This document shows positions 616-64,000 of a stretch of 64,000 nt of DNA, in pieces. The notes under the pieces are model-generated. The model saw only the letters and a program-made list of their open reading frames with translations. It was not told the origin of the DNA and did not search any database. The stretch is taken from the IMG/VR virus record IMGVR_UViG_3300045988_099276, positions 32,001 through 96,000 of that record, one strand, 5' to 3'. Origin of the DNA: a virus. Position 1 is the stretch's first letter; each line of letters opens with the position of its first letter. Made by a program: the position numbers and the translations under genes.

Positions 616-1560
616 TTAATTTTCAAACCAGTTACGCAACTCGATTACCGAAGGGCAAGTTCCTCGACCTTGCTCGCGGCACTCTTCCACGAACTCAGGA
701 ATTGCATCCATAAGACGAGGTTCAAATGCCAGCTTGGTCTTGATGTTCTTGATAGTCTCAATATCGCGTCCAGTCCAAACCTGCTGCAAAACTCCACGAG
801 CCTGCTTCCAGTTCTTGTACCAAGGGGTCTTATATTTCACCATGAATCCGTCTGCATCCTCGAATACAAAGCCCTCGATGCTAGCACGTGCGGCCCACTT
901 GTCAATGAAGGCTTCAAACTCCTGCCAGTTAGCAATGACTTTGCTAAGAGCCTTGCAATAGAATCCAAAATGTCCAGCAACATCAATCAAAGTGTTATAC
1001 TCTGCATGGCTGTAGTCAAAATCATTGTACACCAAGTCCAGAAGCACAAGGTGAGGATATGAATACTCAACGATATGCGGGTCATGGATAGGGTCAATGC
1101 ACTCAAAGACAGCGGTGCAGTCGTTCTTGCGCAGATATTCCGCAAACTCTACCTGCTGCGCAGTGGTCAACGTCTTATCCAAAACATCACGGATATATCC
1201 TGCAAAGTCTCCCTCATTAGTGCTCTTGGATGCGATGAACAGCTTGCAGTCCTCGGTCGGGTCAGCAGAAATCATCGCAAGAAATCCGTTAGACTTGACA
1301 TATGCGCACACAGGGAAAACAAGGTTTTCGCGCAGGCTATCCATTTCAGTCTCAGGACGCTCACCGATGTTGAAGAACTTGTTGTACGAACGTGCAACAA
1401 CCTTATTGTCTTTCACAAAAAGTCCGCGTGCCTTTACGTTGATGGAGTCCCATGCTTGGTTGAAAAAGCACTTGTTTGAGAAATTAAAAGAAGAGATTCC
1501 ATTGGCAAGATGCTTCTCGCGCACGAGCGAGCTATTACGCAGCATATCGACTTCGTTCAT
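616..1560 (-). CDS. ATP-dependent RNA/polynucleotide ligase-like nucleotidyltransferase
   Basis: 314 aa; putative motif I KSNGF (KxNG) after ...PVCAYV; downstream EGFVFED and KYK motifs resemble ligase motifs IV/V. Family assignment rests on motifs only. Confidence 0.55.
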   Translation of the reverse strand: MNEVDMLRNSSLVREKHLANGISSFNFSNKCFFNQAWDSINVKARGLFVKDNKVVARSYNKFFNIGERPETEMDSLRENLVFPVCAYVKSNGFLAMISADPTEDCKLFIASKSTNEGDFAGYIRDVLDKTLTTAQQVEFAEYLRKNDCTAVFECIDPIHDPHIVEYSYPHLVLLDLVYNDFDYSHAEYNTLIDVAGHFGFYCKALSKVIANWQEFEAFIDKWAARASIEGFVFEDADGFMVKYKTPWYKNWKQARGVLQQVWTGRDIETIKNIKTKLAFEPRLMDAIPEFVEECREQGRGTCPSVIELRNWFEN

Positions 1561-1873: not shown

Positions 1874-1950
1874 TGGTGGGCTATACAGAACTTGAATCTG
1901 TAACCTAAAGATTAGAAGTCTTTTGCTCTGTCCATTTGAGCTAATAGCCC
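1874..1950 (-). tRNA. tRNA-Arg (anticodon UCU), CCA encoded
   Basis: Minus strand reads GGGCTAT-TA-GCTC-AAATGGAC-AGAGC-A-AAAGA-CTTCTAA-TCTTT-AGGTT-ACAGA-TTCAAGT-TCTGT-ATAGCCC-A-CCA. This folds as a canonical cloverleaf with a 7-bp acceptor stem and a TTCAAGT T-loop. Confidence 0.9.
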
Positions 1951-8547: not shown

Positions 8548-9447
8548 ATGAAAACTATAAAGGAACAAATTATTGATTATGTAGAACAACATCCTAATTG
8601 CACTACATTTGAGTGTCAAGAATCCATTGGTTGTACGATTAATTACGTTAGAATTGTCTTTAAAAAAATTGGTTATAAAGCTCCAATAGTTCAACCAAAA
8701 AGAATTAAATACGTTGAAGGAAATGTTATAGGCGATAATAACGTATTTTTTAAACAACGTTTAGATAGTGAAAACGGAATCTTTATATGTCCTCTTTGTG
8801 GAAAAGAATTTGCTGGAAGTATTAGTGGCGTTGGTAAAGGACTTATTAAATCTTGTGGTTGTTTACATGATGCAGCTGCCAGAAATAATACATTTAAAGA
8901 TTTAACTGGACAAAAATTTGGAAAACTTACTGTTCAATATTGTCTTCCTTATAGTACTTCTGAAAATAGAGCGATTTGGCATTGTGTTTGTGAATGTGGT
9001 GGAGAAAAAGATGTGGTTGGTAAGTCTTTAAGACAAGGTCATACTATATCATGTGGATGCTCTAATTCAAAAGGAGAAGTAAAATTAAAACAGATATTAA
9101 CTTTGTTAAAAATAAAATTTGAAGAACAAAAAACTTTTGAAGATTTTATTACTGAACATAATCGTTATTATAGATTTGATTTTTATTTACCTGAATATAA
9201 TACTTGTATAGAATATGATGGCAAACAACATTATAAAGTTACTGGTTGGCAAACAGAAGAAAAATTAGCTGATACAAAATACAAAGACTCTATTAAGAAT
9301 AGTTATTGTATTGAAAATAATATAACACTTATTAGAATTCCATATACATATTATGATGATATAAATGAAGAAACTATTTCAAATTTATTGAAAGGAGTAA
9401 AAGATGGCACACTTCAACAAGTATGTACATTTGGAGAGGTCTACTAG
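8548..9447 (+). CDS. free-standing homing-endonuclease-like protein (Zn-ribbon repeats + DUF559/Vsr-like PD-(D/E)XK domain), paralog 1
   Basis: AAAGGAAAC SD then ATG. Repeats of type GxxFGxLTV...WxCxCxCG...SCGC. C-terminal RFDFYLPEYNTCIEYDGKQH...LIRIPY. Paralogous to 15627-16418 and 42742-43632. Confidence 0.7.
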   Translation: MKTIKEQIIDYVEQHPNCTTFECQESIGCTINYVRIVFKKIGYKAPIVQPKRIKYVEGNVIGDNNVFFKQRLDSENGIFICPLCGKEFAGSISGVGKGLIKSCGCLHDAAARNNTFKDLTGQKFGKLTVQYCLPYSTSENRAIWHCVCECGGEKDVVGKSLRQGHTISCGCSNSKGEVKLKQILTLLKIKFEEQKTFEDFITEHNRYYRFDFYLPEYNTCIEYDGKQHYKVTGWQTEEKLADTKYKDSIKNSYCIENNITLIRIPYTYYDDINEETISNLLKGVKDGTLQQVCTFGEVY

Positions 9448-10336
9448 GCAGGAAGTCCAAAATTTCGTTGGAAGAGACGTAATTTTACAAGTTAAATTAG
9501 ATGGTACGTCAGCTTCCATCTGGGTAGATGATAACGGAAATATCGCTTGCGGTAGCCGCACTCGTGAGATTTCTATTGAGAAGGATAATGCTGGCTTTGC
9601 TGATTATATCACCAACACTGACGATGCCGAGGTTAAGGCACTAAGGGATTGGTTGCTTGACCATCCTACCTATATCATTTATGGCGAGTGGCTTGGCGGT
9701 GTTGATGGCCGCAAGTTCACTGGTACTATCAAGACTTATCTTGAGGGCGGTTTCTTCATCTTTGATATTCTCAATACTGAGGATGGTGAGTATATTAATT
9801 ATGATGTATGGTATCCAGTAGTCAGCAAGTTCTATCATCGTTGCGTTCCTGTCATTTGCCGCATTAGCAACATGACTTGGGACGATGTGAACAAGCACGT
9901 TGACGAGTGTACTTATAATCTTCCGAAGGGAACCATCGGAGAGGGCATTGTAATCAAGGCTTATCCTTGCGTGCGCGACCCGTGGGGTAATGTTCAGATT
10001 GCCAAGATTGTCCGTGACGAGTGGCATCAGGATAAGTCTAAGAAGAAGCCTGTCTACACGGGCACTGACTCTTTGGAGAAGGAGTTTGTAGAGAAGTATG
10101 GCACCGATGCCTTTGTCGAGAAGGAGGTCAATAAGGTTCTTATCGCTCTTGATATGGATAAAATTGATTGTAAGAACGGCAAGTTCTTTGGTATGGCTAT
10201 CAATAAGGTTCTTGATGAACTTATGGAAGAGAACTTCTGGGATTTCTTCAAGAAGAAGAAAGCTGCTTCTGTCAAACTGGCCGCAATCAAGGGTCTTGCT
10301 CAGGAACGAGTGCGCGAGTATATTCTTAAAAACTAA
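9404..10336 (+). CDS. RNA ligase, Rnl2-like
   Basis: Motif I KLDGTS, then YGEWLG, GEGIVIK and KIVRDEW. AAAGGAG SD. Start overlaps the upstream endonuclease gene. Confidence 0.7.
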   Translation: MAHFNKYVHLERSTRQEVQNFVGRDVILQVKLDGTSASIWVDDNGNIACGSRTREISIEKDNAGFADYITNTDDAEVKALRDWLLDHPTYIIYGEWLGGVDGRKFTGTIKTYLEGGFFIFDILNTEDGEYINYDVWYPVVSKFYHRCVPVICRISNMTWDDVNKHVDECTYNLPKGTIGEGIVIKAYPCVRDPWGNVQIAKIVRDEWHQDKSKKKPVYTGTDSLEKEFVEKYGTDAFVEKEVNKVLIALDMDKIDCKNGKFFGMAINKVLDELMEENFWDFFKKKKAASVKLAAIKGLAQERVREYILKN

Positions 10337-12728: not shown

Positions 12729-14153
12729 ATGTCTAAGTTTAATGAAAAGGTTAAGCCCGAGCGTTCTATGTCCTATGAGGGTGGTAAGAATTACAAGAAG
12801 GATGTTCTTGAGGATTGGATGAACTTCCTATTCTCTAGCAAGATGGACGATGGTTTCTACGAGAATGCCGCAACGCAGCAAACTCGTTTCATCGAGCTTA
12901 CCAATCTTGTAATTGATAAGTATGGCGCTGAGTTTGCTGGTAAGTGTGCTATGTTCACGCGAAATGCTCTAGGGCAGCGTAGCACTGCTCAGCTTGTTGC
13001 GGCTATGCTGAATGGTCAGAGCTTTGAACGCAAGCGTGATTTCTACAAGGCTTTTTGTCATCGTCCTGATGATATGTCTGAGATTTTCGCTGCTGTTGAC
13101 ATGCTTGGTGGAAAGCGTTCTCATGCTATGATTCGTGGTTTTGCAGATTATATGTCTTGTCTTTCTGAGTACAATCTTATGAAGTATCAGATGAAGGGCA
13201 AGCGTTATAACATGTATGACCTTATCAATATCATTCACCCCAAGAGTGAGATTGTTGATGATTACATGAATGGTAAGCTAGAAGCTGCTGATACTTGGGA
13301 AGTCAATATCTCCACTGGCAAGGACAGTTGGAAGAATATGGTCGAAGGTAATCGTCTCGGTTATCTCGCTCTTATCCGCAATCTCAACAACATTCTCGCA
13401 GAGAATGTTGATGATGAATGGATTAAGCGTAATCTTGTAGACCAACTTATTAACGAGGTTTCTATCAAGAAGTCTCTTGTATTCCCTTATCAGATTTATA
13501 CCGCTTATCGCAATCTTAATGTTCAGAACTTTGCGGTCATCACAGCACTTGATACTGCTTTCCGTATTGCTTGCGGCAACATGCCCAAGCTGGAAGGTAA
13601 CTCCGTTATCATGCTTGATGTTTCCGGTTCGATGGAAGACCGCTATGGTAACAAGTCAAATCTTACCATCAAGGAAGTAGGAGCTTGCTACGCTGCGGCT
13701 CTTTACATTAACGGTAATTGCGACTTTGTAAAGTTCGGCAATCGTGCTAAATCTGCAACTTTCAAGAAGGCTTGCGGTCCGTTCCAAGTCATTCGTGAAA
13801 TGTGTGAGAATGATAATTGTGGTTATGGAACTGATATTGCTCCTGCTTTCGGTCTTATCAGTGACAAGAAGTACGACCGCATCTTCGTTGTCTCTGATAT
13901 GCAGGTTATGGAGCGTGTTTCATGGTGGGGAAGTGCTAACGATATGAGCAGCTATAATAGCTACTGTGCCAACAATGGCCGCACGATTCTTTATAGTTTT
14001 GACCTTGGAAACTATTCTAGCCAGATTGCCAATCCTAACAATCCTGATGTTCACTTCATGACAGCTCTGAACGATAACGTCTTCAAGATGCTTGAATACG
14101 TAGAGAATGGCGGCAAGTTATACGACTACATCAATGATAACTACCACTTCTAA
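12729..14153 (+). CDS. Ro60/Rsr-like TROVE-domain protein with vWA domain
   Basis: N-terminal SYEGGKNYKKD...W.NFLF is TROVE-like. C-terminal vWA domain with MIDAS motif VIMLDVSGSM. 474 aa. Confidence 0.8.
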   Translation: MSKFNEKVKPERSMSYEGGKNYKKDVLEDWMNFLFSSKMDDGFYENAATQQTRFIELTNLVIDKYGAEFAGKCAMFTRNALGQRSTAQLVAAMLNGQSFERKRDFYKAFCHRPDDMSEIFAAVDMLGGKRSHAMIRGFADYMSCLSEYNLMKYQMKGKRYNMYDLINIIHPKSEIVDDYMNGKLEAADTWEVNISTGKDSWKNMVEGNRLGYLALIRNLNNILAENVDDEWIKRNLVDQLINEVSIKKSLVFPYQIYTAYRNLNVQNFAVITALDTAFRIACGNMPKLEGNSVIMLDVSGSMEDRYGNKSNLTIKEVGACYAAALYINGNCDFVKFGNRAKSATFKKACGPFQVIREMCENDNCGYGTDIAPAFGLISDKKYDRIFVVSDMQVMERVSWWGSANDMSSYNSYCANNGRTILYSFDLGNYSSQIANPNNPDVHFMTALNDNVFKMLEYVENGGKLYDYINDNYHF

Positions 14154-30831: not shown

Positions 30832-32582
30832 TGAAAATAGATTATAAATTATATAAGCCAACATTGGATAATTTGACACCTCAACAACAAATTTTGTATA
30901 ATAGAGATATTCCAGTAGAAGAACAAAGTAATTGGCTTAATGCCTATTGGAATGACGTAAATGATTTTCATTTGTTAAAGAACATTAAAGACGCGGCTGT
31001 AATGATTATCAATCACTGTATGTGGACAAGCTCAAAGATTACTATTCTTCAGGACTCAGACCCGGATGGCCTTGGCTCTACTTCTATTATGGCTAACTAT
31101 ATTCATCGTATTTGTAGCAAGGAGCCGACTATTCTAATCCACGAAGGGAAAGCTCACGGACTTACAGACATTGATTTAGACAATATTATAGACACTACAA
31201 ATCTTCTTATTATCCCAGATGCGGCAAGTAATGATTATGAGCAGCTTAAATATTTACATGACAATGGCGTAGATATTGTAATCGCCGATCACCATCATGC
31301 TGAGAAATATTCTGAGGATGCTATTGTAGTAAATAACCAATTAGACGATTATCCAAATAAGAACTTCTGCGGTGCAGGTATTACATGGCAACTTTGCCGC
31401 CAGATGGATGAACTTCTTCATTTTGATTACGCAAATGATTTAATTGATTTATGTGCGCTGTCTTTATGCGCGGATATGATGGATTATCGTGAAAAAGAAG
31501 TGAGAGCGCTTGTCAACATAGGTTACGCGAACGTCAAGAATAAATTCTTTAAAGCGTTCGTAGACAAGCAAGAGTTTTCTTTAAATAAGATGAACGGTCT
31601 TAACTATCTTAGCTCTAGCTTTTACGTGGTTCCTTATCTGAATAGCTGCTGTCGAACTGGTGAAATGGTAGAGAAACGTCTTCTTATTAATGCTCTATTG
31701 GATTACAAATGTGATACAATGATTCCATCATCCAAGAGAGGTGAAAAGGGTAAAGAAGTTCCTATCTGGAAAGAAGCCATTACTGTTATTGAACGAGTAA
31801 AACGCAGACAGACTAAGCTACAAGATGAAGCTATGGAATTCTTTGAATATCAAATTCAATCCAAAAAGCTAACAGATAATGCTATCATTACTTGCGTATG
31901 CGGCAAAGATGATGCTGAACCAGGTATTCTCGGATTGGTGGCGAATCGTATCCAAGCTAAATATCAGCATCCCACACTAGTCTTGCAGGAAGTTGAAGAG
32001 GAAGACGTGGTGCATCTAAAAGGGTCTGCTCGTAATTACTCTTATTGTCCTATTGAAGATATGCGTAGTCTTTGTGAAGATACTGGTGTTGTCGATTATG
32101 CTTCTGGGCACGGGTCTGCATTTGGTCTGTCCTTGCCTTTAGAGAACTTTTATGAGTTCTTAGACAAGACCAATGAGCAATACAAAGGTGTCGATTTTAA
32201 ACCTGTCTATCTCGTTGATTACGTTTGGAATTACGATAGAGTCAATCCAAAATATGTTCTTGATATTGCAGAACTTAATATTTATGGTCAGGGTATTCCA
32301 GAGTCTAAAGTTGTGGTAGAAGATATTGCATTAGACAATGTTAATGTACAGCTTCTAGGTGAAGCAAAAGGGCATCCTACTATTAAGATTTCTTTACCGT
32401 CTGGCGTTGATATTATGAAATTCAAATCTTCTAGAGAAGAATTTGAAGAATGGACAAGTGGTGAAAAGAAGCTAACCATTGTAGGAACGTGTTCCAAAAA
32501 TTCTTGGATGGGAAACATTACGCCGCAAATTCTAATTGATGATTTTGAATTAGAAGATTATGAAGAGGAATGGGTATTTTAA
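30822..32582 (+). CDS. recJ: RecJ-like DHH-family ssDNA exonuclease
   Basis: DHH motifs DSDPDGLGS, IPDAASND, ADHHH and GAGITWQL. Exact start uncertain (30822 TTG or 30831 ATG). Confidence 0.75.
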   Translation: MELMKIDYKLYKPTLDNLTPQQQILYNRDIPVEEQSNWLNAYWNDVNDFHLLKNIKDAAVMIINHCMWTSSKITILQDSDPDGLGSTSIMANYIHRICSKEPTILIHEGKAHGLTDIDLDNIIDTTNLLIIPDAASNDYEQLKYLHDNGVDIVIADHHHAEKYSEDAIVVNNQLDDYPNKNFCGAGITWQLCRQMDELLHFDYANDLIDLCALSLCADMMDYREKEVRALVNIGYANVKNKFFKAFVDKQEFSLNKMNGLNYLSSSFYVVPYLNSCCRTGEMVEKRLLINALLDYKCDTMIPSSKRGEKGKEVPIWKEAITVIERVKRRQTKLQDEAMEFFEYQIQSKKLTDNAIITCVCGKDDAEPGILGLVANRIQAKYQHPTLVLQEVEEEDVVHLKGSARNYSYCPIEDMRSLCEDTGVVDYASGHGSAFGLSLPLENFYEFLDKTNEQYKGVDFKPVYLVDYVWNYDRVNPKYVLDIAELNIYGQGIPESKVVVEDIALDNVNVQLLGEAKGHPTIKISLPSGVDIMKFKSSREEFEEWTSGEKKLTIVGTCSKNSWMGNITPQILIDDFELEDYEEEWVF

Positions 32583-37988: not shown

Positions 37989-38441
37989 ATGATTTTTCAA
38001 GTACGGCAAGGAGTGTTTGAAACTAATTCAAGCTCAACACATACGCTAACTATCTGCTCAAAAGATGATTTTGACAAGTGGAAAAATGGCGAAGTATTTT
38101 GGCTTGACAATGATTGGCATAAATTAGATACAGATAAGAATTTTGTTACCCCAGAAGAGCTAAAAGAGCTTGCGGAAAAGTACAATGAAGAACAACAGAA
38201 GCGCATTGACGCAGGAGATAAGTACGCTAAACTGCTTGATATTGACAAAGTTCTCAATGAGCGTCCAGATTACGATAGTTGGGACGATAGCTATTGGGAC
38301 ACTGAGCGTAGTGCGCTGGAAGCATATACAACAGATGATTTTTATGTACGTAACGATGAACTTGAAACTTATAGTGAAACTTTTACTTCTCCTTCTGGTG
38401 ACGAAATGGTAGCGTTTGGAGCGTTTGGATATGATGACTAA
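37989..38441 (+). CDS. hypothetical acidic protein
   Basis: 150-aa ORF with AGAGGA SD. Confidence 0.5.
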   Translation: MIFQVRQGVFETNSSSTHTLTICSKDDFDKWKNGEVFWLDNDWHKLDTDKNFVTPEELKELAEKYNEEQQKRIDAGDKYAKLLDIDKVLNERPDYDSWDDSYWDTERSALEAYTTDDFYVRNDELETYSETFTSPSGDEMVAFGAFGYDD

Positions 38442-40557
38442 AGATTGGAATATGACAGCCAAAGGTTTTGACCCTCGCCCTTCCAATTGTGTTTCTTACA
38501 ATAACGGTAACTATACAGTTACGTTATCTCTTGCAGACGGGACTATGATTCGATACAGTAAAGACGACAAATTGGTCCCGTCTTTTCCTGACTCTATGGA
38601 TATTAAAATTACCAACTGCTGTTCGCTGAATTGCCGTTATTGTCACGAGAAATCGATAAAGGACGGACAGCATGGAGACATCTTATCAGACAGCTTTATT
38701 GACAAGCTACATCCTTACACTCAACTAGCTTGCTTAGCGGGAGATACAACCGTTCATACTGAATACGGTGCAAAAAATATTTCTGAGCTTAAAGTTGGTG
38801 ACAAGATTTACGATTCTGAATATAAATTACGAACTGTAATTTCTATTCAAACAAAACAAGACTCTTATCTAACAATTAAAGGTAATAGAGGTTTTAATGT
38901 TCAATGTTCAAAAGACCATCCATTCTATAGCAATAATGTTAAGACATTAGCTGAAAATATAAAAGCAAAAACTCAAATTGATGTTATTTCTTCTTTTGAA
39001 GATACAACTTTTACAAAAAATGAAAAGCCAATCATCTGTTATATGAACAAGTATATTCACCATTACACAAATCCAAGATATAAAAATACACATAGCGGCT
39101 ACATAACAGATGATAACAAAGTTGTTCTGTGTCCTAATACTCCAGCAATTCCTCAGCGCATCGTTCTTAATGAAGATTTAATGTGGTTATATGGATTATA
39201 TGTGGCCGAAGGGTCTTCAAAGAGTTTTGTTTTGCATGAAAAAGAAACTGACTTTGCAAATAGAATTAAACAAATATGGAAAGACAATTTTAAATTAGAT
39301 TGTGCTATTTACTATCATCCAGAAAGACACAGCCAAGCGATAGAGCCACAATCAAAATCTATTATGGATGCTTTCTTTGTAAAATATTTACAGGCAGGTC
39401 ATGGTGCTAGAAATAAAACTCTTAGCTTCTTATATAAAGTAAACAATAAAGAGTTTATTAGAAGTGCTTTGCGTGGGTTATATGATGGTGACGGTTGTAT
39501 TAGAACAAGAAAAAGAGGCGATTCTGTTTTCTATTCTTTAAGTTTAAAAACAACCAGTAAAACCTTAGCTTATGACGTAGCTTTTCTGATTGCAAAATGG
39601 TTTGGTATTTATGCTTCTGTTTTTCACGGCATCAGTCCAGAAAGAGAAATTGAGGGTAGAACTTTACAATCATCAGATTATTATATGGTTGATATTTATG
39701 GATTGGAATCTTGCAAGAAACTTTTTCCAGATTATATTGAATGGCAAGAACTAAAAGTAATACAACATCGTAGACAGCCTATTCTAAAAGCAAAAGAAAT
39801 CGTAGAAAGCTTAGACGAACAGACTCTTTATGATATTACGTTAGACGGCGGTACGCATATTTTTCCAATAAATGGATACGTATTAACACATAATTGCGGT
39901 GGGGGCAATGTTCTAGAGCATCCCGACCTTGTACCTTTTCTAAAGAAGTGTAAGGAACTAAAGTTAGTCCCATCTATAACAGTGAACCAGATTCATTTTA
40001 TGCAACAGCATAAGTTTCTCAAGCAGTTGACAGATGAAAAGCTAATCTATGGTCTTGGTATCTCTTTCCATCACCCTGATAAGAACTTCCTGCTTATGCT
40101 CCGCAGCTTTCCTAATGCGGTCATTCATACAATCGCAGGTATCACCAAGGAAAGAAATTATGAGTTCCTTGCCGACAACGGTTTAAAGATTCTTATTCTT
40201 GGATATAAGAAATTCGGTCGTGGAATTCAAGCCTACCAAGAGTCTCATCAGCATATTGATTACAGTATCATGAATCTCAAACACCTTTTGCCGTATATGG
40301 TCAAAGAAAAGTGGTTTGACAGCATTTCATTTGATAATCTTGCGCTAGAGCAGCTTGACGTAAAGAACCTTATGCCGCAAGATAAGTGGGATATGTTCTA
40401 TATGGGCGATGAAGGTAGTTCCACGATGTATGTTGATATGGTCAATCGAGAGTTTGCGGCGAATTCTACGTCTGAAACTCGTTATCCTCTTTTGGACAAT
40501 GTAGAAGATATGTTGAATGTAATTCACCAAGAGAAGAAGGGAAAAGATATTGACTAA
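38431..40557 (+). CDS. radical SAM protein interrupted by an intein
   Basis: Cluster motif CSLNCRYC (CxxxCxxC) in the N-extein; CGGGNVLEHPD (GGE-like SAM motif) at the start of the C-extein. The ATG at 38431 overlaps the upstream stop. Confidence 0.8.
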   Translation: MMTKDWNMTAKGFDPRPSNCVSYNNGNYTVTLSLADGTMIRYSKDDKLVPSFPDSMDIKITNCCSLNCRYCHEKSIKDGQHGDILSDSFIDKLHPYTQLACLAGDTTVHTEYGAKNISELKVGDKIYDSEYKLRTVISIQTKQDSYLTIKGNRGFNVQCSKDHPFYSNNVKTLAENIKAKTQIDVISSFEDTTFTKNEKPIICYMNKYIHHYTNPRYKNTHSGYITDDNKVVLCPNTPAIPQRIVLNEDLMWLYGLYVAEGSSKSFVLHEKETDFANRIKQIWKDNFKLDCAIYYHPERHSQAIEPQSKSIMDAFFVKYLQAGHGARNKTLSFLYKVNNKEFIRSALRGLYDGDGCIRTRKRGDSVFYSLSLKTTSKTLAYDVAFLIAKWFGIYASVFHGISPEREIEGRTLQSSDYYMVDIYGLESCKKLFPDYIEWQELKVIQHRRQPILKAKEIVESLDEQTLYDITLDGGTHIFPINGYVLTHNCGGGNVLEHPDLVPFLKKCKELKLVPSITVNQIHFMQQHKFLKQLTDEKLIYGLGISFHHPDKNFLLMLRSFPNAVIHTIAGITKERNYEFLADNGLKILILGYKKFGRGIQAYQESHQHIDYSIMNLKHLLPYMVKEKWFDSISFDNLALEQLDVKNLMPQDKWDMFYMGDEGSSTMYVDMVNREFAANSTSETRYPLLDNVEDMLNVIHQEKKGKDID
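38731..39894 (+). mobile_element. intein (388 aa) with LAGLIDADG homing endonuclease domain
   Basis: Block A CLAGDTTVHT; block B SKDHPF; LAGLIDADG motifs LYGLYVAEGS and LRGLYDGDGCI; terminal block INGYVLTHN followed by the +1 Cys (TGC at 39895). Confidence 0.9.
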
Positions 40558-47035: not shown

Positions 47036-48082
47036 TTAAAAAGGATTAGCATCAGAAATACAGACTTGTAGACGGTCAAGAGCTTCGCCATACATACCAG
47101 CGAAATCATCACCACCGTATGTAGAGCCATCATCGCATACAGAGTTTAGCCAACCTTCACGGGCAACTGTCTGTGAACGATAGTATACTTGCTTATATTC
47201 TTCACCTTTGGGTGTAATATAATACATGCGTACACCGTCAATCGCATGACCACCAATACCAGCACAGCCGTTAACTAGGTCATTTTTATTACCCTGAGAT
47301 ATATAGTCTAGCCAGCCATCCTGCTGAGTGTGAACCTGATACTTGAGAGTACCACGGTCAGCCCAAGCGCATAGATAATCGTGCTTGCCGCAAGGCACAC
47401 CAGCAAAGCCGTTTGAATCAGAATTATTAAAGTTAGTTACTGTATCATTCCAGCCGCCATTAAGATTGCGCAGAGCATAGTGAACATTAACAAGAGCTTT
47501 ACCCTGCGGAGCCTTATTAGTAGGTGCAGGTGCAGGAATAGGTTTATTTGTAGAAGGAGCAGGAGCAGCTTCGGCGCCGTTCTTCATTGCATCATACCAA
47601 GCCTGCGCTCGACTCATATATTCAGCGTTTTGACTACCAGCTAGTTCGCCCGGACACGCCGTAGACGACCAATAGCGATGTGGGAAGACATTAACTAGCC
47701 ACTGAGGACGACCAAGATTGTAATAGAGACATAGAGCAGCGACTAGATGCGCACCAGACTCTAAAGCAGCAGGGAAGACAGTCCAAGGATTGCTGTTGTT
47801 GTTAGCGTGCTCAATAGAGATAGTATGAGTATTTGCATACCAATTACCGCAAGCCCAAGCGGTATCCCAGTCATTGACCATCTGACCGATTTTACCATCA
47901 GCCTGAACCGCATAGTGAGCAGAAGTCTGCGAATGGCTCCATAGATTATAGCACTGGTCGATAGAAAGATTACCAGCCATATGATGAATAGTAATACCAG
48001 TAATGTTAGCACCTTCACGACCTGCGGTATAGTCACAAGGTAGAATCTTTGTTACATCAGCTTGAATATTTTTCCAATCCAT
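47036..48082 (-). CDS. endolysin: N-acetylmuramoyl-L-alanine amidase (Amidase_2/PGRP) + ChW-like cell-wall-binding repeats
   Basis: N-terminal ITGITIHHMAGN...SAHYAV...ISIEH...CPG. Pro/Ala linker. C-terminal repeats (GWND...FAGVPCG, DGWLDY...CAGIGGHAIDGVRM, EGWLNS...FAGMYGEALDRLQV). Confidence 0.82.
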   Translation of the reverse strand: MDWKNIQADVTKILPCDYTAGREGANITGITIHHMAGNLSIDQCYNLWSHSQTSAHYAVQADGKIGQMVNDWDTAWACGNWYANTHTISIEHANNNSNPWTVFPAALESGAHLVAALCLYYNLGRPQWLVNVFPHRYWSSTACPGELAGSQNAEYMSRAQAWYDAMKNGAEAAPAPSTNKPIPAPAPTNKAPQGKALVNVHYALRNLNGGWNDTVTNFNNSDSNGFAGVPCGKHDYLCAWADRGTLKYQVHTQQDGWLDYISQGNKNDLVNGCAGIGGHAIDGVRMYYITPKGEEYKQVYYRSQTVAREGWLNSVCDDGSTYGGDDFAGMYGEALDRLQVCISDANPF

Positions 48083-52321: not shown

Positions 52322-53053
52322 TTAAATTTTTATCCACAACTTACATCTTGAATCTGTTGGCTGAGTAGATGAAACTTGAACTGAATATTCAGTGTTTGCA
52401 CTTCCAGCAGTAGTGGCATATTTAACTGATTGAGAACCAATATCAGCTGATGTAATACATTGGCCGTAATATGAATCGTCTGAGTTATATAGAGAAACAT
52501 TCGGAGTACCATTTAAACCTTTGACGCAAAAGGCACCACTCTTATTATGGTCACCAATAGCAGCATCATCGCCAACGACATACCAAGTATTGTTTGCGAA
52601 ATACGGTTCTAGCTTAGAAGGAAAATCACTGATTTGAGACTTTGTATGTGTATGACTAGAAGGCGTATATGTATTTGGCTTTCCAGATATATTATTCCAA
52701 GCGACAGCATTCGCAGTGGCGGCTGTAGTCGCTGTTGTGGCACTTCCTGCTGAATCAGCATATCCCGCAGACATTTTATACCAAGCACTAGAATTTAGCG
52801 CTCTTTTGTATAAATAAGATGATGCTCCGTCTGGAATAGCAATTTGAAATGGAGTGCCAATATCTGCATCGGTGAACACACTTGCCCATGTGCCAACGGG
52901 AGAAGATGCGTTGCCACCAGTTGACGGCACTCCCCTGACAACATAATAACCAGTTTTGGTATGATTATCTAGATTCGTATCAGTTGTTACTGTTTCTGTC
53001 AACAGCGGTATTTTAGAAAATTTACTACCATCAGAAAGATAAAGTTCAGCCAT
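52322..53053 (-). CDS. tail fibre / receptor-binding protein (fibre C)
   Basis: N-terminal MAELYLSDGSKFSKIP; ISGKPNTYTPSSHTHTKSQISDFP module; conserved C-terminus SSTQPTDSRCKLWIKI. No SD; ATG overlapped by the leader stop. Confidence 0.72.
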   Translation of the reverse strand: MAELYLSDGSKFSKIPLLTETVTTDTNLDNHTKTGYYVVRGVPSTGGNASSPVGTWASVFTDADIGTPFQIAIPDGASSYLYKRALNSSAWYKMSAGYADSAGSATTATTAATANAVAWNNISGKPNTYTPSSHTHTKSQISDFPSKLEPYFANNTWYVVGDDAAIGDHNKSGAFCVKGLNGTPNVSLYNSDDSYYGQCITSADIGSQSVKYATTAGSANTEYSVQVSSTQPTDSRCKLWIKI

Positions 53054-53117
53054 TTAAATCAATTAAACTAGTTAATGTGGGCTTAAAGCCCCCCCCCCAA
53101 GAAGTGTAAGTTTGCAT
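53046..53117 (-). CDS. poly-G leader ORF C (23 aa, ON frame)
   Basis: GAAAGGA SD then ATG; MQTYTSWGGGFKPTLTSLIDLNG. The TGA overlaps the fibre ATG (AATGGCTGA). Confidence 0.5.
   Translation of the reverse strand: MQTYTSWGGGFKPTLTSLIDLNG
53089..53098 (-). repeat. homopolymeric tract, G10 on the coding strand
   Basis: C10 run on the + strand inside leader ORF C. Confidence 0.95.
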
Positions 53118-53134
53118 AAAAATTCCTTTCAATC

Positions 53135-54181
53135 TTAAATTTTAATCCATATCTTACATGTATTGCTAGTAGGCTTTGTGCTAGATATGGTTACAATGTC
53201 GCTCGCTGCCTTGGCATTGAGCTTTGTGTTCATTTCACTTTCAGTATAGTAGCGGTCATCGTGAGTGTGGCTAGAGTTGGCTTTGCCGTTTAATTTAGTA
53301 TTGATTTCGCTTTCAGTGTAATATCTATCATCGTGAGTGTGACTTGACGGAGCATACGTAGAAGGTTTGCCATTAACATTCCCCCATGACACACTATTGG
53401 CAGAACCAGCACTGCTGGCATATGCAACTTTACCAACATCATAACCAGTAGCTTGTGCAGTATATGCTCTTGTGTCCATTGCAGCTCGGGGTTCATCGTT
53501 CATTAACTGCCAAGAAGAGCCATTACCACCACGGGTGCTGTTTGCTAAAATTCGGATATTACACGAATTATATGTGCCAGTAGCATGAAAATATAAATCA
53601 GCATATCCAACAGTTGATTTAGCAGAATGTATTTTTAAAATAAATTGGTCTGGTTCATATCCATATCTACAAAGCCATTGAACGTTTCCATGAGTAGCCA
53701 CAGCGCTTTCAGATACATTATCATTGCGGAAACGGACTGCTAGAATGCCAAATCCACCACTTTCGTAACCAGAATCTACACACAATACAACGCTACCATC
53801 GAAAGAATTAGTTTTTGATTCAAGCTTTAAACAACGCCAATATGGTTTAGCAGCACTGCTTTGAGTAACATATCGGACAGTACCATTTAAATAATTAGCG
53901 ATATTAGCTGTACCAGAAATATTACATGATACAACATTTCCTACTGGATTATATTTAAAATTATCGCTATGAACTCTTTGATTATCTGCACTATTATTTG
54001 AAAACCAAACATGTCTTGCAGCATTGTCCGAAGCGGTACCATAACTTTTTACTTCTTTCGCGGCACCTCCTGCGGAATCTGCACCCGCATAATTATGGCT
54101 ATGACTAGCAGCTGCTGCTCCCACCATATCTGGCGTCCACTCTTTAAAAGACCCGCCACTGGGATAATACGCTTTAGCCAA
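53135..54181 (-). CDS. tail fibre / receptor-binding protein (fibre B)
   Basis: TTG start without SD; MAKAYYPSGGSFKEW; SSHTHDDRYYTESE(I/M)NTKL occurs twice; C-terminus SSTKPTSNTCKIWIKI. Confidence 0.72.
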   Translation of the reverse strand: MAKAYYPSGGSFKEWTPDMVGAAAASHSHNYAGADSAGGAAKEVKSYGTASDNAARHVWFSNNSADNQRVHSDNFKYNPVGNVVSCNISGTANIANYLNGTVRYVTQSSAAKPYWRCLKLESKTNSFDGSVVLCVDSGYESGGFGILAVRFRNDNVSESAVATHGNVQWLCRYGYEPDQFILKIHSAKSTVGYADLYFHATGTYNSCNIRILANSTRGGNGSSWQLMNDEPRAAMDTRAYTAQATGYDVGKVAYASSAGSANSVSWGNVNGKPSTYAPSSHTHDDRYYTESEINTKLNGKANSSHTHDDRYYTESEMNTKLNAKAASDIVTISSTKPTSNTCKIWIKI

Positions 54182-54193
54182 TTAAATCATTGG

Positions 54194-54253
54194 CTACTGA
54201 TGCCCCCCCCAGCAGACCTCACTAAAGGTGCGCTGTGTTAAAATATTCTTCAT
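54194..54253 (-). CDS. poly-G leader ORF B (19 aa as sequenced, OFF frame)
   Basis: MKNILTQRTFSEVCWGGHQ* with G8. With G9 it reads ...WGGASVANDLIG* and its TAA overlaps the fibre TTG (TTGGCTAA). Confidence 0.45.
   Translation of the reverse strand: MKNILTQRTFSEVCWGGHQ
54203..54210 (-). repeat. homopolymeric tract, G8 on the coding strand
   Basis: C8 run on the + strand inside leader ORF B. Confidence 0.95.
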
Positions 54254-54260
54254 ATTATCA

Positions 54261-55721
54261 CTATACCTTAATCCATAATTTACAAGTACTCGCGTTGGGC
54301 TGCGAAGAAGAAACGATAACTTCTTCTGGCCGCCAAGTGTTAGTGTCATTATCAGTAAGCGCAATAGTCGCATTGCCAGACTGGTTCAAAGTAAACGTAC
54401 CCTTTGTAGCGCCGTTCTGCGTAATTGTAATAGTACCATTGCCGACAGAAGGAATTGACGGTCTGTTAGAGATTTCAGACCAAGAATAGGAAGGTTTGCT
54501 TGAAGCCTTAGCCCAAGCATACACATCACTTGCTGGCATACTGGTAGGGAAATCTGTAATCTGGGACTTTGAATGAGTGTGTGAAGAAGCGGCGGCACCG
54601 ATACTAGAAGCTGTGATATTAATATTCTTGACTGCACTACCATCATATGCACCTTGAGAAGTACCATTTAAAGAAATGGTAAGCGCATTAGGATTCTTTA
54701 AAGAACTTGGAACAGTAGGAATAGTAGGCTTATTGGAAAGGTCATTATATGAGCCGCTTGTCGCAACGGTAGCAAAAGATGGCTTGCCAGATACCTGTGA
54801 CCAAGTAGGAGTATGATTGGAATCAAAATAATGCGCCCAAGCGCTCCAAGCGTTAACATTAAACTGGCGAATCCAAGTTTTCATAGCATTGGTATTGCCC
54901 TCAGTTAAAACTTGAACTAGATAACTGCCAGCTGTTCTTTTGACTTCAAGACCGAAAGCGTCTACGCCAGTGGGCTTATTCTTGACACTATTTGAACCAC
55001 CCGCAAAATAAAGGCCAACTGTTTTAGTATCATCAAGATTTTGTGTAGTAAGTTCTGTTACCTTTAGTGCGTTTGCGGTTGCAGCAGTAGTCGCACTGCC
55101 AGCACTAGCCGCATACTTTACACTCTTGGCAGAGTCAGCGGTATTATCAACATTACCTAGACCGACTTCTGCCTTAGAATATGAAGGTTTTGTGGCTGCT
55201 TTCGCCCATGCAGAAACATCTGATGCTGGCATTGAAGTCGGAAAATCTGTAATATCGGCTTTAACATGTTTGTGACCAGTATCAGACTTACCGTCAAGAG
55301 CAGATTTAACAACCTTACTCTGAACTGGATTGGTAGAATTAGTAACGAACGATGTATCTACAACTGTCTTGTTCGCGCCAGTAGCAACACCGTCAAGTTT
55401 AGCCTTATCTGCGGCAGACATAAGACCTGCGGCACTGGTAGTAGCATTGCCGTATACAGTATTTGAATCGGTAACATTAAATGTACTACCATCGCTACCC
55501 TTGAGGGTAATTGTATTGCCATTTTTGGTTAGATTATAAGTTGTATTTGTATTGATATTATCTTTAATCTGAATCAGAGAGGATGAAGAAATACCCATCC
55601 ACAAAGTGCCGGTATCGGTGGCAACATACAATGCACCGTCCAATACTTTATTTTCGGCAGTGAGTGCTTTGATATTAGGTTCTTTATCTCTGATAAATTT
55701 TACTCTTGCTATCTTGCTCAC
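54261..55721 (-). CDS. tail fibre protein (486 aa)
   Basis: GAAAGGA SD then GTG. Repeated KADITDFPTSMPASDVSAWAKA / KSQITDFPTSMPASDVYAWAKA modules with HTH/HKH motifs. C-terminus SSSQPNASTCKLWIKV. Confidence 0.78.
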   Translation of the reverse strand: MSKIARVKFIRDKEPNIKALTAENKVLDGALYVATDTGTLWMGISSSSLIQIKDNINTNTTYNLTKNGNTITLKGSDGSTFNVTDSNTVYGNATTSAAGLMSAADKAKLDGVATGANKTVVDTSFVTNSTNPVQSKVVKSALDGKSDTGHKHVKADITDFPTSMPASDVSAWAKAATKPSYSKAEVGLGNVDNTADSAKSVKYAASAGSATTAATANALKVTELTTQNLDDTKTVGLYFAGGSNSVKNKPTGVDAFGLEVKRTAGSYLVQVLTEGNTNAMKTWIRQFNVNAWSAWAHYFDSNHTPTWSQVSGKPSFATVATSGSYNDLSNKPTIPTVPSSLKNPNALTISLNGTSQGAYDGSAVKNINITASSIGAAASSHTHSKSQITDFPTSMPASDVYAWAKASSKPSYSWSEISNRPSIPSVGNGTITITQNGATKGTFTLNQSGNATIALTDNDTNTWRPEEVIVSSSQPNASTCKLWIKV

Positions 55722-61413: not shown

Positions 61414-61806
61414 TTAAGCTGTACGATACCAGATAAAGCAAGTTGTATAGGGCGGCAGATTGTTGTGTGCTTGCCCCCCCCCAGTATTCTTTGCAGCATT
61501 ATTCCAATCTGGATTACCATCATTCCACGCAGGAGAATTAGTTGCAAAAAGTGTACGATATGTTGTTGCATTTCCACCGTTAACAACAGCAACAACAATG
61601 CCATGTCCATGAGACGGCATTTCATCAATTGTTAACGTATGCTTTGCTTCTCCGCCTGTTTGATTTGCGGTATTAGCTCCATAGAGGAAAGTCTTAATTT
61701 TCGTCCATGTACCACCAATAGAATCAGCAGGTGATGTTGCACTCATGCTCTGATAGATTGAGCCTACTGGATATACGATATCCAATAGATTTACAAAATT
61801 ACTCAT
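61414..61806 (-). CDS. phage tail-collar-domain protein, paralog 3 (contains an in-frame G9 tract)
   Basis: MSNFVNLLDIVYPVGSIYQS...GGTWTKI...MPSHGH...NTGGGQAHNNLPPY...WYRTA. The GGG GGG GGG codons encode the conserved GGGQ motif. Confidence 0.72.
   Translation of the reverse strand: MSNFVNLLDIVYPVGSIYQSMSATSPADSIGGTWTKIKTFLYGANTANQTGGEAKHTLTIDEMPSHGHGIVVAVVNGGNATTYRTLFATNSPAWNDGNPDWNNAAKNTGGGQAHNNLPPYTTCFIWYRTA
61474..61482 (-). repeat. homopolymeric tract, G9 on the coding strand, intragenic
   Basis: C9 run on the + strand, 23 codons before the stop of 61414-61806. Confidence 0.95.
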
Positions 61807-61850: not shown

Positions 61851-62303
61851 TTAGGCTGTTCTCTTATATACATTTAAAGAATAATGATAAGGAATATGCT
61901 TCTGCTGCTCGACTAATTGCCCATTTGAGTCTATTCGCCAAATGTCTTTAGTCCACAAATTCCAACCAGTATCACCACCATCTTTACCACCAACTGACAA
62001 TAATTGCCATAGATTACCAGCGGCAGCATTAGTATTCCAAAAACCAATACCCGAATATTGTTCCCTGTCATGATGCCAACCCACAACATTGTGCTGATGG
62101 TCTGGTATGGCTAGCTGAGAAATTATATTGCTACCAGAAAAACGTCCAGCTACGTTATAGGTATCACCACTTGCCGCAAGCAAACAATTTTCAATTTGTG
62201 TCCACGTACCACCAATAGAATCAGCAGGAGAAGTAGCATTTGTACTAATATAGATACTTCCTACTGGATAAATAATATCAAGAAGATTTACAAAATTAGA
62301 CAT
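61851..62303 (-). CDS. phage tail-collar-domain protein, paralog 2 (divergent C-terminal half)
   Basis: MSNFVNLLDIIYPVGSIYIS...SPADSIGGTWTQI...IPDHQH...YKRTA. Confidence 0.68.
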   Translation of the reverse strand: MSNFVNLLDIIYPVGSIYISTNATSPADSIGGTWTQIENCLLAASGDTYNVAGRFSGSNIISQLAIPDHQHNVVGWHHDREQYSGIGFWNTNAAAGNLWQLLSVGGKDGGDTGWNLWTKDIWRIDSNGQLVEQQKHIPYHYSLNVYKRTA

Positions 62304-62342
62304 GATAAATCACCATGCCTAGAACAGCCATTGAAGAAGAAG

Positions 62343-62399
62343 CTACATTACTGTAGCCTCCCCCCCCCAATGACTGTGATTAGTCATTAAGTTTTTCAT
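62343..62399 (-). CDS. poly-G leader ORF D (18 aa as sequenced, OFF frame)
   Basis: GAAAGGA SD then ATG; MKNLMTNHSHWGGEATVM* with G9. With G10 it reads ...HWGGGGYSNVASSSMAVLGMVIYHV* and its TAA overlaps the next ATG (ATGTCTAA). Confidence 0.45.
   Translation of the reverse strand: MKNLMTNHSHWGGEATVM
62360..62368 (-). repeat. homopolymeric tract, G9 on the coding strand
   Basis: C9 run on the + strand inside leader ORF D. Confidence 0.95.
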
Positions 62400-62434
62400 A
62401 ATATCCTTTCGTTTAGATATTATGATTTTAGACT

Positions 62435-62818
62435 TTAAGCAGTTCGCACCCAAACTTTGCAAGCATATGAATAAGGATAATAATCCTGTCCACCACCAGC
62501 ATCACCAGTATTACACCCTTGAGGATAGTTTTGTGCGCCAGCACTGCCTGAATCTTCACTATAGTCTTTACGAACAATATTAGGATTACCGTAATTTGCT
62601 GTAACATATTGAGCGTGTGCGTGAACTGGCATCTGTTTAACGCTAATAGTCTTACTACCAGTATAACCTACAATATCATCATATGCGGCCAAACATGCGC
62701 CATCTTTAATTTGAGTCCATGTACCGCCAATAGATGATGCAGGTGAAATACCGCTAGCAGTGATATATATACTGTTTACAGGATAGATAATATCTAGAAG
62801 GTTTACGAAATTGCTCAT
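62435..62818 (-). CDS. phage tail-collar-domain protein, paralog 1
   Basis: MSNFVNLLDIIYPVNSIYIT...GGTWTQI...MPVHAH...GGGQDYYPYSY...VWVRTA. Strong AAGGAGG SD. Confidence 0.72.
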   Translation of the reverse strand: MSNFVNLLDIIYPVNSIYITASGISPASSIGGTWTQIKDGACLAAYDDIVGYTGSKTISVKQMPVHAHAQYVTANYGNPNIVRKDYSEDSGSAGAQNYPQGCNTGDAGGGQDYYPYSYACKVWVRTA

Positions 62819-62931
62819 TATTCAACCTCCTTATTTGGGAGGTTATCTAAAATCATAATATCAAATTGATTTATAGATTCTAAGCTACCGCAGTAGCCCC
62901 CTAGAGAGGTCAATTCATTAAACTTATTCAC
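62818..62931 (-). CDS. leader-like small ORF E (37 aa) with a short G5 run
   Basis: AAAGGAG SD then GTG; VNKFNELTSLGGYCGSLESINQFDIMILDNLPNKEVE. Its TAA overlaps the next ATG (TAATG). LGGY aligns with WGGGGY of leader D. Confidence 0.45.
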   Translation of the reverse strand: MNKFNELTSLGGYCGSLESINQFDIMILDNLPNKEVE

Positions 62932-62975
62932 ATAAAACTCCTTTTCTTTCTCAGAATTATATTCTATATCTATAT

Positions 62976-63010
62976 GAAAAAAGGGCAAAACCCCTAATAG
63001 GATTTTGCCC
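62976..63010 (-). terminator. Rho-independent terminator
   Basis: GGGCAAAA/TTTTGCCC stem followed by T6 on the minus strand, after fibre A. Confidence 0.6.
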
Positions 63011-63019
63011 AAAACTATA

Positions 63020-63838
63020 TTAGATTTTAATCCACAATTTACAAGTAGAGGATGTAGGCTGAGAAGATGATACAGTGATAACATCATTTGCCGCATAATT
63101 GGAAGAAGAAGTATATGCGGCGCTACCAAGACCTAACCATTTCCTATATTCACCTTGTGATACGTCTTTAATTTTTCGTTCATCGTTCATACCAAGAGCA
63201 TACTTAAAATCGGCAGATGTAAATCCATCACCAGCATAACCGATTTTAATACCTTGATTAGTATTATTATAATCCGCTATCTCAATAGCTTTATCTGCTG
63301 AACCTGCACTTGTAGCTTTACCAGTAAGATTGCCTTTAAAATTATTAGCTTCAATCGTTGAATACGCAGTATTCGATGTATAATTACAAAACTTATATGT
63401 AATACCAGTAGTCCCACCATCTGATGCATCAGAGTCGGCATTTCTATAATTAAAATAACAAGTAGGTTGCTTACCACCAGAAAAGTTAATTTCATTTTGA
63501 TGAGTATAAATTACATTTATACACTTATTAGCGGTACCAGCTGAATTAGCATAATTTACTGACTTACTAGAATCTGCTGTATTATTGACGTTATTGATAC
63601 CTAGATATTGCTTTGCCGCATCTAGATTTACATCTTTAATATGATTGCCAGTTGAACTATATCCTGCAAGACAACCTAAATTCTTTTCAGCATCTTCTTG
63701 ATTTAATCTTAAAGATTCTGCTGCAAATCCTATTTTAATTGTTCTACCGGTAGGTGCATTATAATCTCGCACACCATCGGCTTTAGAAGGGACAAATTCA
63801 GAAAAATTCGTCCCATCGCTCACCATAAAATCAGCCAC
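63020..63838 (-). CDS. tail fibre / receptor-binding protein (fibre A)
   Basis: GTG start without SD; MADFMVSDGTNFSEFVP; C-terminus SSSQPTSSTCKLWIKI. Confidence 0.72.
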   Translation of the reverse strand: MADFMVSDGTNFSEFVPSKADGVRDYNAPTGRTIKIGFAAESLRLNQEDAEKNLGCLAGYSSTGNHIKDVNLDAAKQYLGINNVNNTADSSKSVNYANSAGTANKCINVIYTHQNEINFSGGKQPTCYFNYRNADSDASDGGTTGITYKFCNYTSNTAYSTIEANNFKGNLTGKATSAGSADKAIEIADYNNTNQGIKIGYAGDGFTSADFKYALGMNDERKIKDVSQGEYRKWLGLGSAAYTSSSNYAANDVITVSSSQPTSSTCKLWIKI

Positions 63839-63852
63839 ATCTATCAGCTAAG

Positions 63853-63897
63853 TTATCTAGCGGGGCAGATGCCCCCCCCCAGAAACGTATTATTCAT
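63853..63897 (-). CDS. poly-G leader ORF A (14 aa as sequenced, OFF frame)
   Basis: AAGGA SD then ATG; MNNTFLGGGICPAR* with G9. With G8 it reads MNNTFLGGASAPLDNLADRCG* and its TGA overlaps the fibre GTG (GTGGCTGA). Confidence 0.45.
   Translation of the reverse strand: MNNTFLGGGICPAR
63872..63880 (-). repeat. homopolymeric tract, G9 on the coding strand
   Basis: C9 run on the + strand inside leader ORF A. Confidence 0.95.
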
Positions 63898-63907
63898 ATC
63901 TACATCC

Positions 63908-64000
63908 TTAAATTTGTACCCACAGTTTAACATGTTCTTCTGTTGGCTTACTCACGCCAACATAAACAGTACCAACATCATCTGCAAGTTTACCATTGGT
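63908..64000 (-). CDS. tail fibre protein (3' end only; gene starts beyond the window)
   Basis: ...TNGKLADDVGTVYVGVSKPTEEHVKLWVQI*; the C-terminus is homologous to the ..QPT...CKLWIKI ends of the other fibres. Confidence 0.6.
   Translation of the reverse strand, partial: TNGKLADDVGTVYVGVSKPTEEHVKLWVQI

Follow-up and report, generated by a model that had tools for sequence, protein, structure and literature searches.

How is a tail-fibre gene translated when it begins with TTG and has no Shine–Dalgarno (SD) sequence, and what part is played by the short open reading frame (ORF), carrying a run of G residues, that stands directly before it? The question is raised by a gene named here fibre B, and by its leader ORF, leader B, in a stretch of 64,000 nucleotides (nt) from the IMG/VR virus record IMGVR_UViG_3300045988_099276 (positions 32,001–96,000 of that record). 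This whole stretch is called the window below, and the leader and fibre features discussed are on its minus strand. The answer that we regard as probable, rather than firm, is that leader B is a slipped-strand contingency switch acting by translational coupling, in which the length of the G tract sets the frame of the leader and one frame would bring ribosomes to the start codon of fibre B.

Anatomy of leader B and the start of fibre B

The features at the junction are as follows.

54261–55721, minus strand: main (first) tail-fibre gene, 486 amino acids (aa), with its own SD (GAAAGGA) and PHROG matches of tail-fibre type
54194–54253, minus strand: leader B ORF as sequenced, 19 codons plus TAG, reading MKNILTQRTFSEVCWGGHQ up to the stop
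54203–54210, minus strand: G8 tract of leader B, in leader codons 15–17, hypermutable
54174–54176, minus strand: TAA that ends the coupled frame (G9; also G6 and G12), overlapping the TTG of fibre B as TTGGCTAA
54175–54196, minus strand: hairpin at leader B, 8 base pairs (bp), UAGCCAAU-GAUUUA-AUUGGCUA
53135–54181, minus strand: fibre B, 348 aa from the TTG, without an SD, with a conserved N-terminal stretch of 18 residues

The main fibre ends in CKLWIKV, and its TAG (54263–54261) is 7 nt ahead of the leader B ATG (54253–54251). As sequenced, leader B passes through the G8 tract (54210–54203) and stops at the TAG at 54196–54194, which is at −15 relative to the TTG of fibre B (54181–54179) and leaves a gap of 12 nt (54193–54182). 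With one G added, the leader reads on through CWGGASVANDLIG, and its stop becomes the TAA at 54176–54174, which begins 5 nt past the first base of the TTG (a position termed +5 below); overlap of stop and start is thus confined to the G9 frame. Both the early stop and the effect of adding one G had been proposed in a first-pass annotation made from the sequence alone, and all of its coordinates are reproduced on the minus strand. The only SD-like element of leader B is AAGG (54269–54266), 12 nt 5′ of the ATG and with a predicted energy of −4.9 kcal/mol, which is as weak as that annotation had judged it to be. Because the SD of the leader itself is weak, leader B may be fed, perhaps mainly, by ribosomes that finish the main fibre 7 nt upstream. 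A mini-ORF (ATG-ATT-TAA, 54190–54182) abuts the TTG of fibre B, and the fibre B protein ends with SHTHDDRYYTESE repeats and a final CKIWIKI. Fusion of leader and fibre by frameshift was considered and rejected, as stops are present in all three frames between the tract and the TTG in all orthologues.

The TTG of fibre B has no complementarity to the anti-SD sequence (+0.2 kcal/mol). A strong SD (anti-SD duplex of −6 kcal/mol or lower) precedes 22 of the 31 neighbouring genes, as against 4.5% of random positions, which is consistent with an SD-using host. The TTG is invariant in 21/21 orthologues and has an in-frame TAA directly before it. In codons 2–18 of these orthologues, eight variable codons differ synonymously only and three show conservative replacements, a pattern of clear purifying selection. 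The paralogous fibres A and D, which use ATG and GTG, start at the aligned position and share the N-terminal motif MA(E/K/D)..(S/P)(D/S)G..F; a paralogue in the related contig L008 that has its own SD and no poly-G leader starts with TTG as well. The public gene call begins fibre B at an ATG at codon 19 (Met19), 11–12 nt downstream of a weak, badly spaced SD-like element (AAAGAG, −5.6 kcal/mol). The conserved codons 2–18 argue against Met19 as the main start, and on this comparative evidence fibre B starts at the TTG. An SD-less TTG start had been part of the first-pass annotation, and a search for an alternative in-frame start with a proper SD found none, the element before Met19 being weak.

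The hairpin at leader B has a 5′ arm that opens with the UAG of the G8 frame, and the TTG is in its 3′ arm. Two A-to-G changes in the 5′ arm of relatives retain G–U pairs, and contig L102 has another 5′ arm that pairs with this start region. The related alleles differ in having long or short tails after the tract, and the segment of about 12 nt that separates the two provides both the UAG and the 5′ arm. Masking of a start is clearer at leader C, a sister leader in the window: the region 62280–62400 (minus strand) is predicted to form two hairpins of very high stability (−43.6 kcal/mol, z = −6.3). A CUUCUUCUUC stretch is the pairing partner of the G run, and the SD (GGUGAU) and ATG of the gene at 61851–62303 are enclosed in the second hairpin. 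In contig L098, CCUUCCUCC is complementary to the fibre SD by eye; the predicted pairing is weak (4 bp in the minimum-energy structure, none in the centroid).

No sigma-70-like promoter was found around 54174–54260, where the tract does not lie between −35 and −10 hexamers, and the leader B site has no terminator and no match to an Rfam family. A role of the tract as a promoter spacer or a terminator was dropped, since no such sites are present at the leader.

Tract lengths among relatives and the recurrent leader design

Homopolymers of about 7 or more G or C residues were taken as prone to slippage. Tract lengths were compared in 23 distinct related contigs, including the window, from IMG/VR and from ENA and JGI metagenomes, and the leader stop was scored relative to the TTG. 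The orthologous leader B tracts span G7–G11, with G9 as the mode. The stop is in the coupled frame (+5) in 13/23 contigs, early in 8/23, and directly abuts the TTG in the other 2/23.

Coupled frame, G9: L003, L005, L007, L091, L092, L093, L095, L096, L099
Coupled frame, other tracts: L161 (T followed by G8); L004 (G10) and L086 (G7), whose tails are 12 nt shorter
Coupled frame, locked on: L101, with the tract interrupted as TTGGGTGGGAGGG
Early stop, G8: the window, L010 and L097, with L160 in the same frame
Early stop, other lengths: L002 and L089 (G10), L090 (G11), L100 (G7)
Stop abutting the TTG: L006 (interrupted, GGTGGGGGG) and L164

The near-identical contig L002, from a different ENA sample, ERZ19651012, differs from the window over 11,017 bp by one single-nucleotide polymorphism and one indel, and the indel is in the leader B tract (G10 versus G8); at leader A, both have the same G10 tract. 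Comparison of assemblies thus shows a hypermutable tract. Because this near-isogenic pair carries G8 and G10, G9 is the obvious single-step intermediate, and the coupled length that the first-pass annotation had predicted by adding one G is in fact the commonest one in related populations. The fibre B ORF is intact in every genome whose leader is out of the coupled frame, which fits a reversible or leaky switch. Mutual exclusivity of leaders A and B, which was perfect in the first 12 contigs, was abandoned when L161 proved to have both on (one-sided Fisher p of about 0.12, calculated by hand).

The design of leader B recurs in leaders of unrelated sequence. Nine leader families were compared: four in the window (A, B, C and D), two in L102, two in L008, and one in L098. 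Their common plan is an SD and an ATG, 5–15 codons, and then a G tract, beyond which exactly one frame is open for 8–20 codons and stops at +5 of the start of the next gene. The junctions take the forms NTGGCTRA, ATGTCTAA and ATGAGTAA. Together the open frames span 130 codons, an outcome whose probability at the local stop-codon frequency is about 1.5e-4 to 5e-4. Of the 18 remaining frames, 17 are closed after 0–5 codons, where about 16 are expected. In related loci, a +5 junction is found within 120 nt of 35 of the 49 distinct tracts of at least seven G residues, the control rates being 2% for randomly placed positions and 4% for the fibre module's coding strand. Codon 2 is GCT, whose T is the first base of the overlapping TAA or TGA, in all leader-coupled fibres, whereas the leaderless, SD-driven paralogue in L008 starts TTG GCA AGA and has no overlapping stop. 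The leader peptide sequences are not conserved, and the frame pattern bears the signatures of selection on translation frames rather than on leader peptides. A scan of IMG/VR for G7...TTGGCTAARGC returned real examples in this lineage only, the other matches being chance occurrences without an ORF.

Within the window, which has a G+C content of 37%, there are five tracts of at least eight G residues, whereas dinucleotide-preserving shuffles give an expectation of 0.08. All five are on the minus strand in the fibre module at 53–64 kb. Four are in short ORFs that precede fibre or collar genes, at the four leader sites that the first-pass annotation had counted, and the additional fifth tract is inside a coding ORF.

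53046–53117, minus strand: leader A, reading MQTYTSWGGGFKPTLTSLIDLNG up to its stop, with G10 at 53089–53098
52322–53053, minus strand: fibre A, 243 aa, ATG start, without an SD (+0.2 kcal/mol)
62343–62399, minus strand: leader C, with G9 at 62360–62368; coupling needs G10 or G7
63853–63897, minus strand: leader D, with G9 at 63872–63880; coupling needs G8 or G11
63020–63838, minus strand: fibre D, GTG start; its junction with leader D is GTGGCTGA
61474–61482, minus strand: fifth tract, G9, in frame in a Gp10_C-like collar or fibre-tip ORF (61414–61806), 22 codons before the stop

Leader A alone is in the coupled frame as sequenced, and its TGA overlaps ATGGCTGA of fibre A; leaders B, C and D would need shifts of +1 G, +1 G and −1 G, respectively. 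Leader C is followed by the two strong hairpins described above, and the gene at 61851–62303 whose SD and ATG are hidden by the second of them is Gp10_C-like. At the fifth tract, one alternative frame runs 83 nt further and stops at +5 of the ATG of the next paralogue (ATGTCTAA, 61395); the same position has G8–G9 in the relatives L004, L005 and L034.

Several further observations concern this module. Read on the sense (mRNA) strand, all five window tracts and nearly all of those in related loci are runs of G, never of C; the G run may have a role at the RNA level, or the bias may be uninformative, as the whole module is on one strand. A small gene (ORF 62818–63129, minus strand) contains VNKFNELTSLGGYCGS at about 62930–62990, where the window has G5 (CTAGGGGGCT) and L008 and L034 have G9; the G5 form looks like a locked-on allele of another switch. 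In L008 (about 9940–10001) and L167, a leader carries a pair of ATGs that are not in the same frame (ATGATAATATGG), with G6 in L008 and G9 in L167, an arrangement that recalls the multiple starts of some bacterial contingency genes. The fibre paralogues of the window (52322–55721 and 63020–63990, minus strand) share the C-terminal motif (V/I)SS(S/T)(Q/K)P(T/N)xxxCK(L/I)WIK(I/V), and a fibre further upstream ends in KLWVQI. The SD of the next leader is embedded in, or is just past, the sequence for this conserved end. Cassettes have been lost or fused at the junctions: L010 and L093 are without fibre A, and L086 combines the N-terminus of fibre B with the C-terminus of fibre A.

The proposed switch and the alternatives

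The switch would operate as follows. Slipped-strand mispairing in phage DNA replication would alter the length of the G tract and hence the frame of the leader. In the G9 frame (also G6 and G12), ribosomes would read eight further codons, melting the hairpin over the TTG, would terminate at the TAA that overlaps the TTG, and would then re-initiate on fibre B despite its weak, SD-less start. In the G8 frame they would stop 2 codons past the tract and 15 nt short of the TTG, and in the G10 frame 4 codons past it and 8 nt short; little or no fibre B would then be made. With at least three sister switches (A, C and D) and one tract in a coding ORF, the result would be a mixture of virions with different accessory fibres. 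That translation of the fibre depends on translation of the leader, how far the frames differ as on and off, and any effect on host range are all inferred. The coupled-frame reading of the first-pass annotation thus draws support from the comparative data, in which G9 is present and no better start appears, although the coupling itself is deduced from the layout of the junction.

A number of points weigh against this model. Coupling has been read from anatomy. The excess of the coupled frame over one third comes from related, non-independent contigs and is only suggestive. The tract lengths are those of assembly consensus sequences rather than of reads, such that any single contig may carry a homopolymer miscall. 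The hairpin at leader B is not significant by itself against shuffled sequences (z = −1.5), and the short-tail alleles (L004, L086, L006 and L164) do not have it. These alleles are themselves awkward for the model, as two of them have a stop that abuts the TTG, which indicates that the +5 overlap is not the sole tolerated geometry. The two off-frame stops lie close to the TTG, at 15 and 8 nt 5′ of it, and the ATG-ATT-TAA mini-ORF abuts it. Post-termination ribosomes can scan such distances of 8–15 nt, so the G8 and G10 states may be leaky, and fibre B low in them rather than off. Some independent initiation of a truncated fibre from the ATG at codon 19 is also possible. The first-pass annotation had called this the least certain of the four leader sites, and we agree, in view of its short tail and its nearby off-frame stops. 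For the hairpin, the absence from short-tail alleles and the comparison with shuffles led us to reject it as a universal requirement, and start masking is treated as a contributing feature.

The short distance (8–15 nt) between the off-frame stops and the start would also suit an arrangement in which the leader is irrelevant: scanning or standby ribosomes at the TTG, or initiation at codon 19 (ATG), would yield fibre B independently, and the tract would be a tolerated hypermutable intergenic homopolymer. That ATG has its weak SD-like AAAGAG (−5.6 kcal/mol) and is the choice of the public gene call, and off frames occur together with intact fibres in 8/23 contigs. We consider such independence unlikely, because it leaves unexplained why nine unrelated leaders each have one frame open to a +5 stop and two that close at once, why codon 2 is GCT in leader-coupled fibres and GCA in the SD-driven paralogue, and why tracts of at least eight G residues are confined to this module in a genome of 37% G+C; the conservation of codons 2–18 also speaks against Met19 as the main start. 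The intact off-state ORFs can be cited, too, for slippage at a fixed ratio, whereby RNA polymerase or the ribosome would slip on the G run and the tract would set a low stoichiometry of fibre B instead of switching it on and off. Long homopolymers are known slippage sites for both, and the G run is on the sense strand in every leader, a bias that slippage of DNA alone does not need. Against this, the length differs in the DNA of near-identical genomes, the interrupted allele L101 is locked in the coupled frame, and strand bias carries little independent information in a module that is on one strand. As the sole function of the tract, fixed-ratio slippage is therefore doubtful, but it is compatible with the frame switch, to which slippage of RNA polymerase or ribosomes on the G run could add leakiness.

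An action of the tract on transcription or RNA stability, through promoter spacing, pairing with C/U-rich sequence or targeting by a small RNA, would make the small ORF incidental. Homopolymers in promoters and 5′ untranslated regions do regulate genes in Neisseria, Bordetella and Helicobacter, and in the minimum-energy fold the G run is base-paired to CCCAG of the fibre coding sequence; that fold is no better than those of shuffled sequences (z = −1.4), however, no promoter-like hexamers flank the tract, and the frame-specific stops, together with an SD and ATG before every tract, are features of translation. We regard a role of this kind as very unlikely. It is still harder to credit that the length differences are artefacts of sequencing or assembly around one fixed true length. 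All of the lengths do come from short-read metagenome assemblies, in which G-rich homopolymers are error-prone. Nevertheless, G7–G11 recur across independent assemblies, the frame-preserving interruptions and flanking substitutions (L101, L160, L161, L006) are ordinary base changes, and the window and L002 agree at leader A (G10) while differing by 2 nt at leader B.

Returning to the frame-gated switch, its extension to the whole lineage is a claim for which we judge the case to be evenly balanced: a human-gut phage lineage of about 140 kb, probably infecting Collinsella, would use frame-gated translational coupling at four leaders which, with the intragenic tract, could yield up to about 32 virion types. 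Accessory fibre and collar genes would have no usable ribosome-binding site, or a masked one, and each would be preceded by a mini-ORF with poly-G of which one frame delivers ribosomes to the start while two stop at once. Virion types would be diversified in this manner while the structural gene is never frameshifted.

Phage context and comparison with known systems

The window is part of a 146-kb contig from a human-gut metagenome (ENA ERZ916335, run ERR321583). No match to 52–56 kb was obtained by megablast among 50,697 phage records, and a tblastn search with fibre B gave only a 27-residue repeat match in an unrelated virus. Besides the tail-fibre module, the phage encodes a replication module (topoisomerase II, DnaB-like helicase, primase, RecJ-like exonuclease and a DNA polymerase about 38% identical to SPbeta YorL) and the anaerobic ribonucleotide reductase NrdD. 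The features that bear on the host and on other functions are listed here.

47036–48082, minus strand: Amidase_2 endolysin, about 62% identical over its full length to proteins of about 50 Collinsella genomes
12729–14153, plus strand; 616–1560, minus strand; 9404–10336, plus strand; 1874–1950, minus strand: RNA-related genes

The Collinsella matches of the endolysin include complete chromosomes, and the protein also resembles the lysins of Eggerthella phages; these matches point to a Gram-positive member of the Coriobacteriia as the likely host. The G+C content of this probable host, which we take to be about 60%, would make the 37% of the phage an unusually large mismatch. The RNA-related genes comprise a TROVE/Ro-like protein, two RNA ligases (one T4 Rnl1-like and another) and a tRNA-Arg(TCT), a combination that suggests an RNA-repair module. 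Next to nrdD, the ORF at 38416–40557 (plus strand) has NrdD-like and Fe-S oxidoreductase-like segments together with a LAGLIDADG domain, and may represent a ribonucleotide reductase gene interrupted by an intein or a homing endonuclease.

If the proposed switch is real, hypermutable switching of receptor-binding proteins (RBPs) would not be limited to Campylobacter phages and would also occur in abundant, uncultured phages of the human gut. A coupled leader ORF would then be a third site for contingency tracts, besides coding sequences and promoters, and one that keeps the structural gene intact when off. There are practical consequences as well. Gene callers overlook such leaders and mis-start the fibre, as in the public call at Met19, and consensus assemblies mask the on/off state; prediction of host range for these phages would require tract lengths at the level of reads. 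Other viromes can be screened for the simple signature, which consists of an SD and ATG, a tract of at least seven G residues, and one open frame whose stop is at +5 of a start without an SD.

Phage contingency loci that control RBPs are a known concept, and the placement of the tract in a coupled leader ORF appears to be new; no such case came up in a full-text literature search that combined phase variation with leader peptides, upstream ORFs or translational coupling. The nearest precedent is the RBP genes of Campylobacter phages of the genus Fletchervirus, in which, according to summaries of the original work, tracts of 7–11 G residues give subpopulations that differ in host recognition (Sorensen et al., 2021, as summarised in bioRxiv 10.1101/2025.10.21.683753, PMC10579305). 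The likeness lies in G7–G11 homopolymers within a phage host-recognition module. As described in citing papers, the Fletchervirus tracts are inside the RBP coding sequence, where a frameshift truncates the RBP, whereas the tract here is in a separate leader ORF of 19–26 codons and the fibre B ORF is never frameshifted; the sister tract at 61474–61482, however, does sit inside a Gp10_C-like ORF. There is no sequence homology between Fletchervirus and the window (no megablast match), and the host here is probably a Gram-positive gut bacterium rather than Campylobacter.

Homopolymer contingency loci have also been reported within coding genes of T2 and T4, and simple sequence repeats are under-represented in the tail fibres of coliphages (Gomez et al., 2025, bioRxiv 10.1101/2025.10.21.683753). 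The present locus shares with those of T2 and T4 and of bacteria (Neisseria, Haemophilus and Campylobacter) a fast-mutating homopolymer, a three-state frame logic and interrupted, locked alleles. The classical sites are inside the regulated ORF or in a promoter spacer, and the one described here is in an upstream coupled leader ORF.

Termination–reinitiation at overlapping stop and start codons is known from gene pairs of the trp operon and from the coat–lysis junction of MS2. Fibre B resembles these in being an SD-less downstream cistron with a stop/start overlap at which non-ATG starts are usable. It differs from them in having a dedicated upstream mini-ORF gated by a mutable tract, and in the 8-nt overlap NTGNCTRA in place of the common ATGA or TAATG. 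In attenuation of the ermC type, the position of the ribosome on a short leader opens a hairpin that masks a start or an SD, as is proposed for leader B and more clearly for leader C; here, however, the input would be a heritable change in DNA length rather than drug-induced stalling, and the hairpin is not universal. Finally, the invertible G and C segments of Mu and P1 and the diversity-generating retroelement of the Bordetella phage BPP-1 likewise provide a phage population with alternative fibres or tips; in the logic proposed here, this would be achieved by homopolymer length, with neither an invertase nor a reverse transcriptase.

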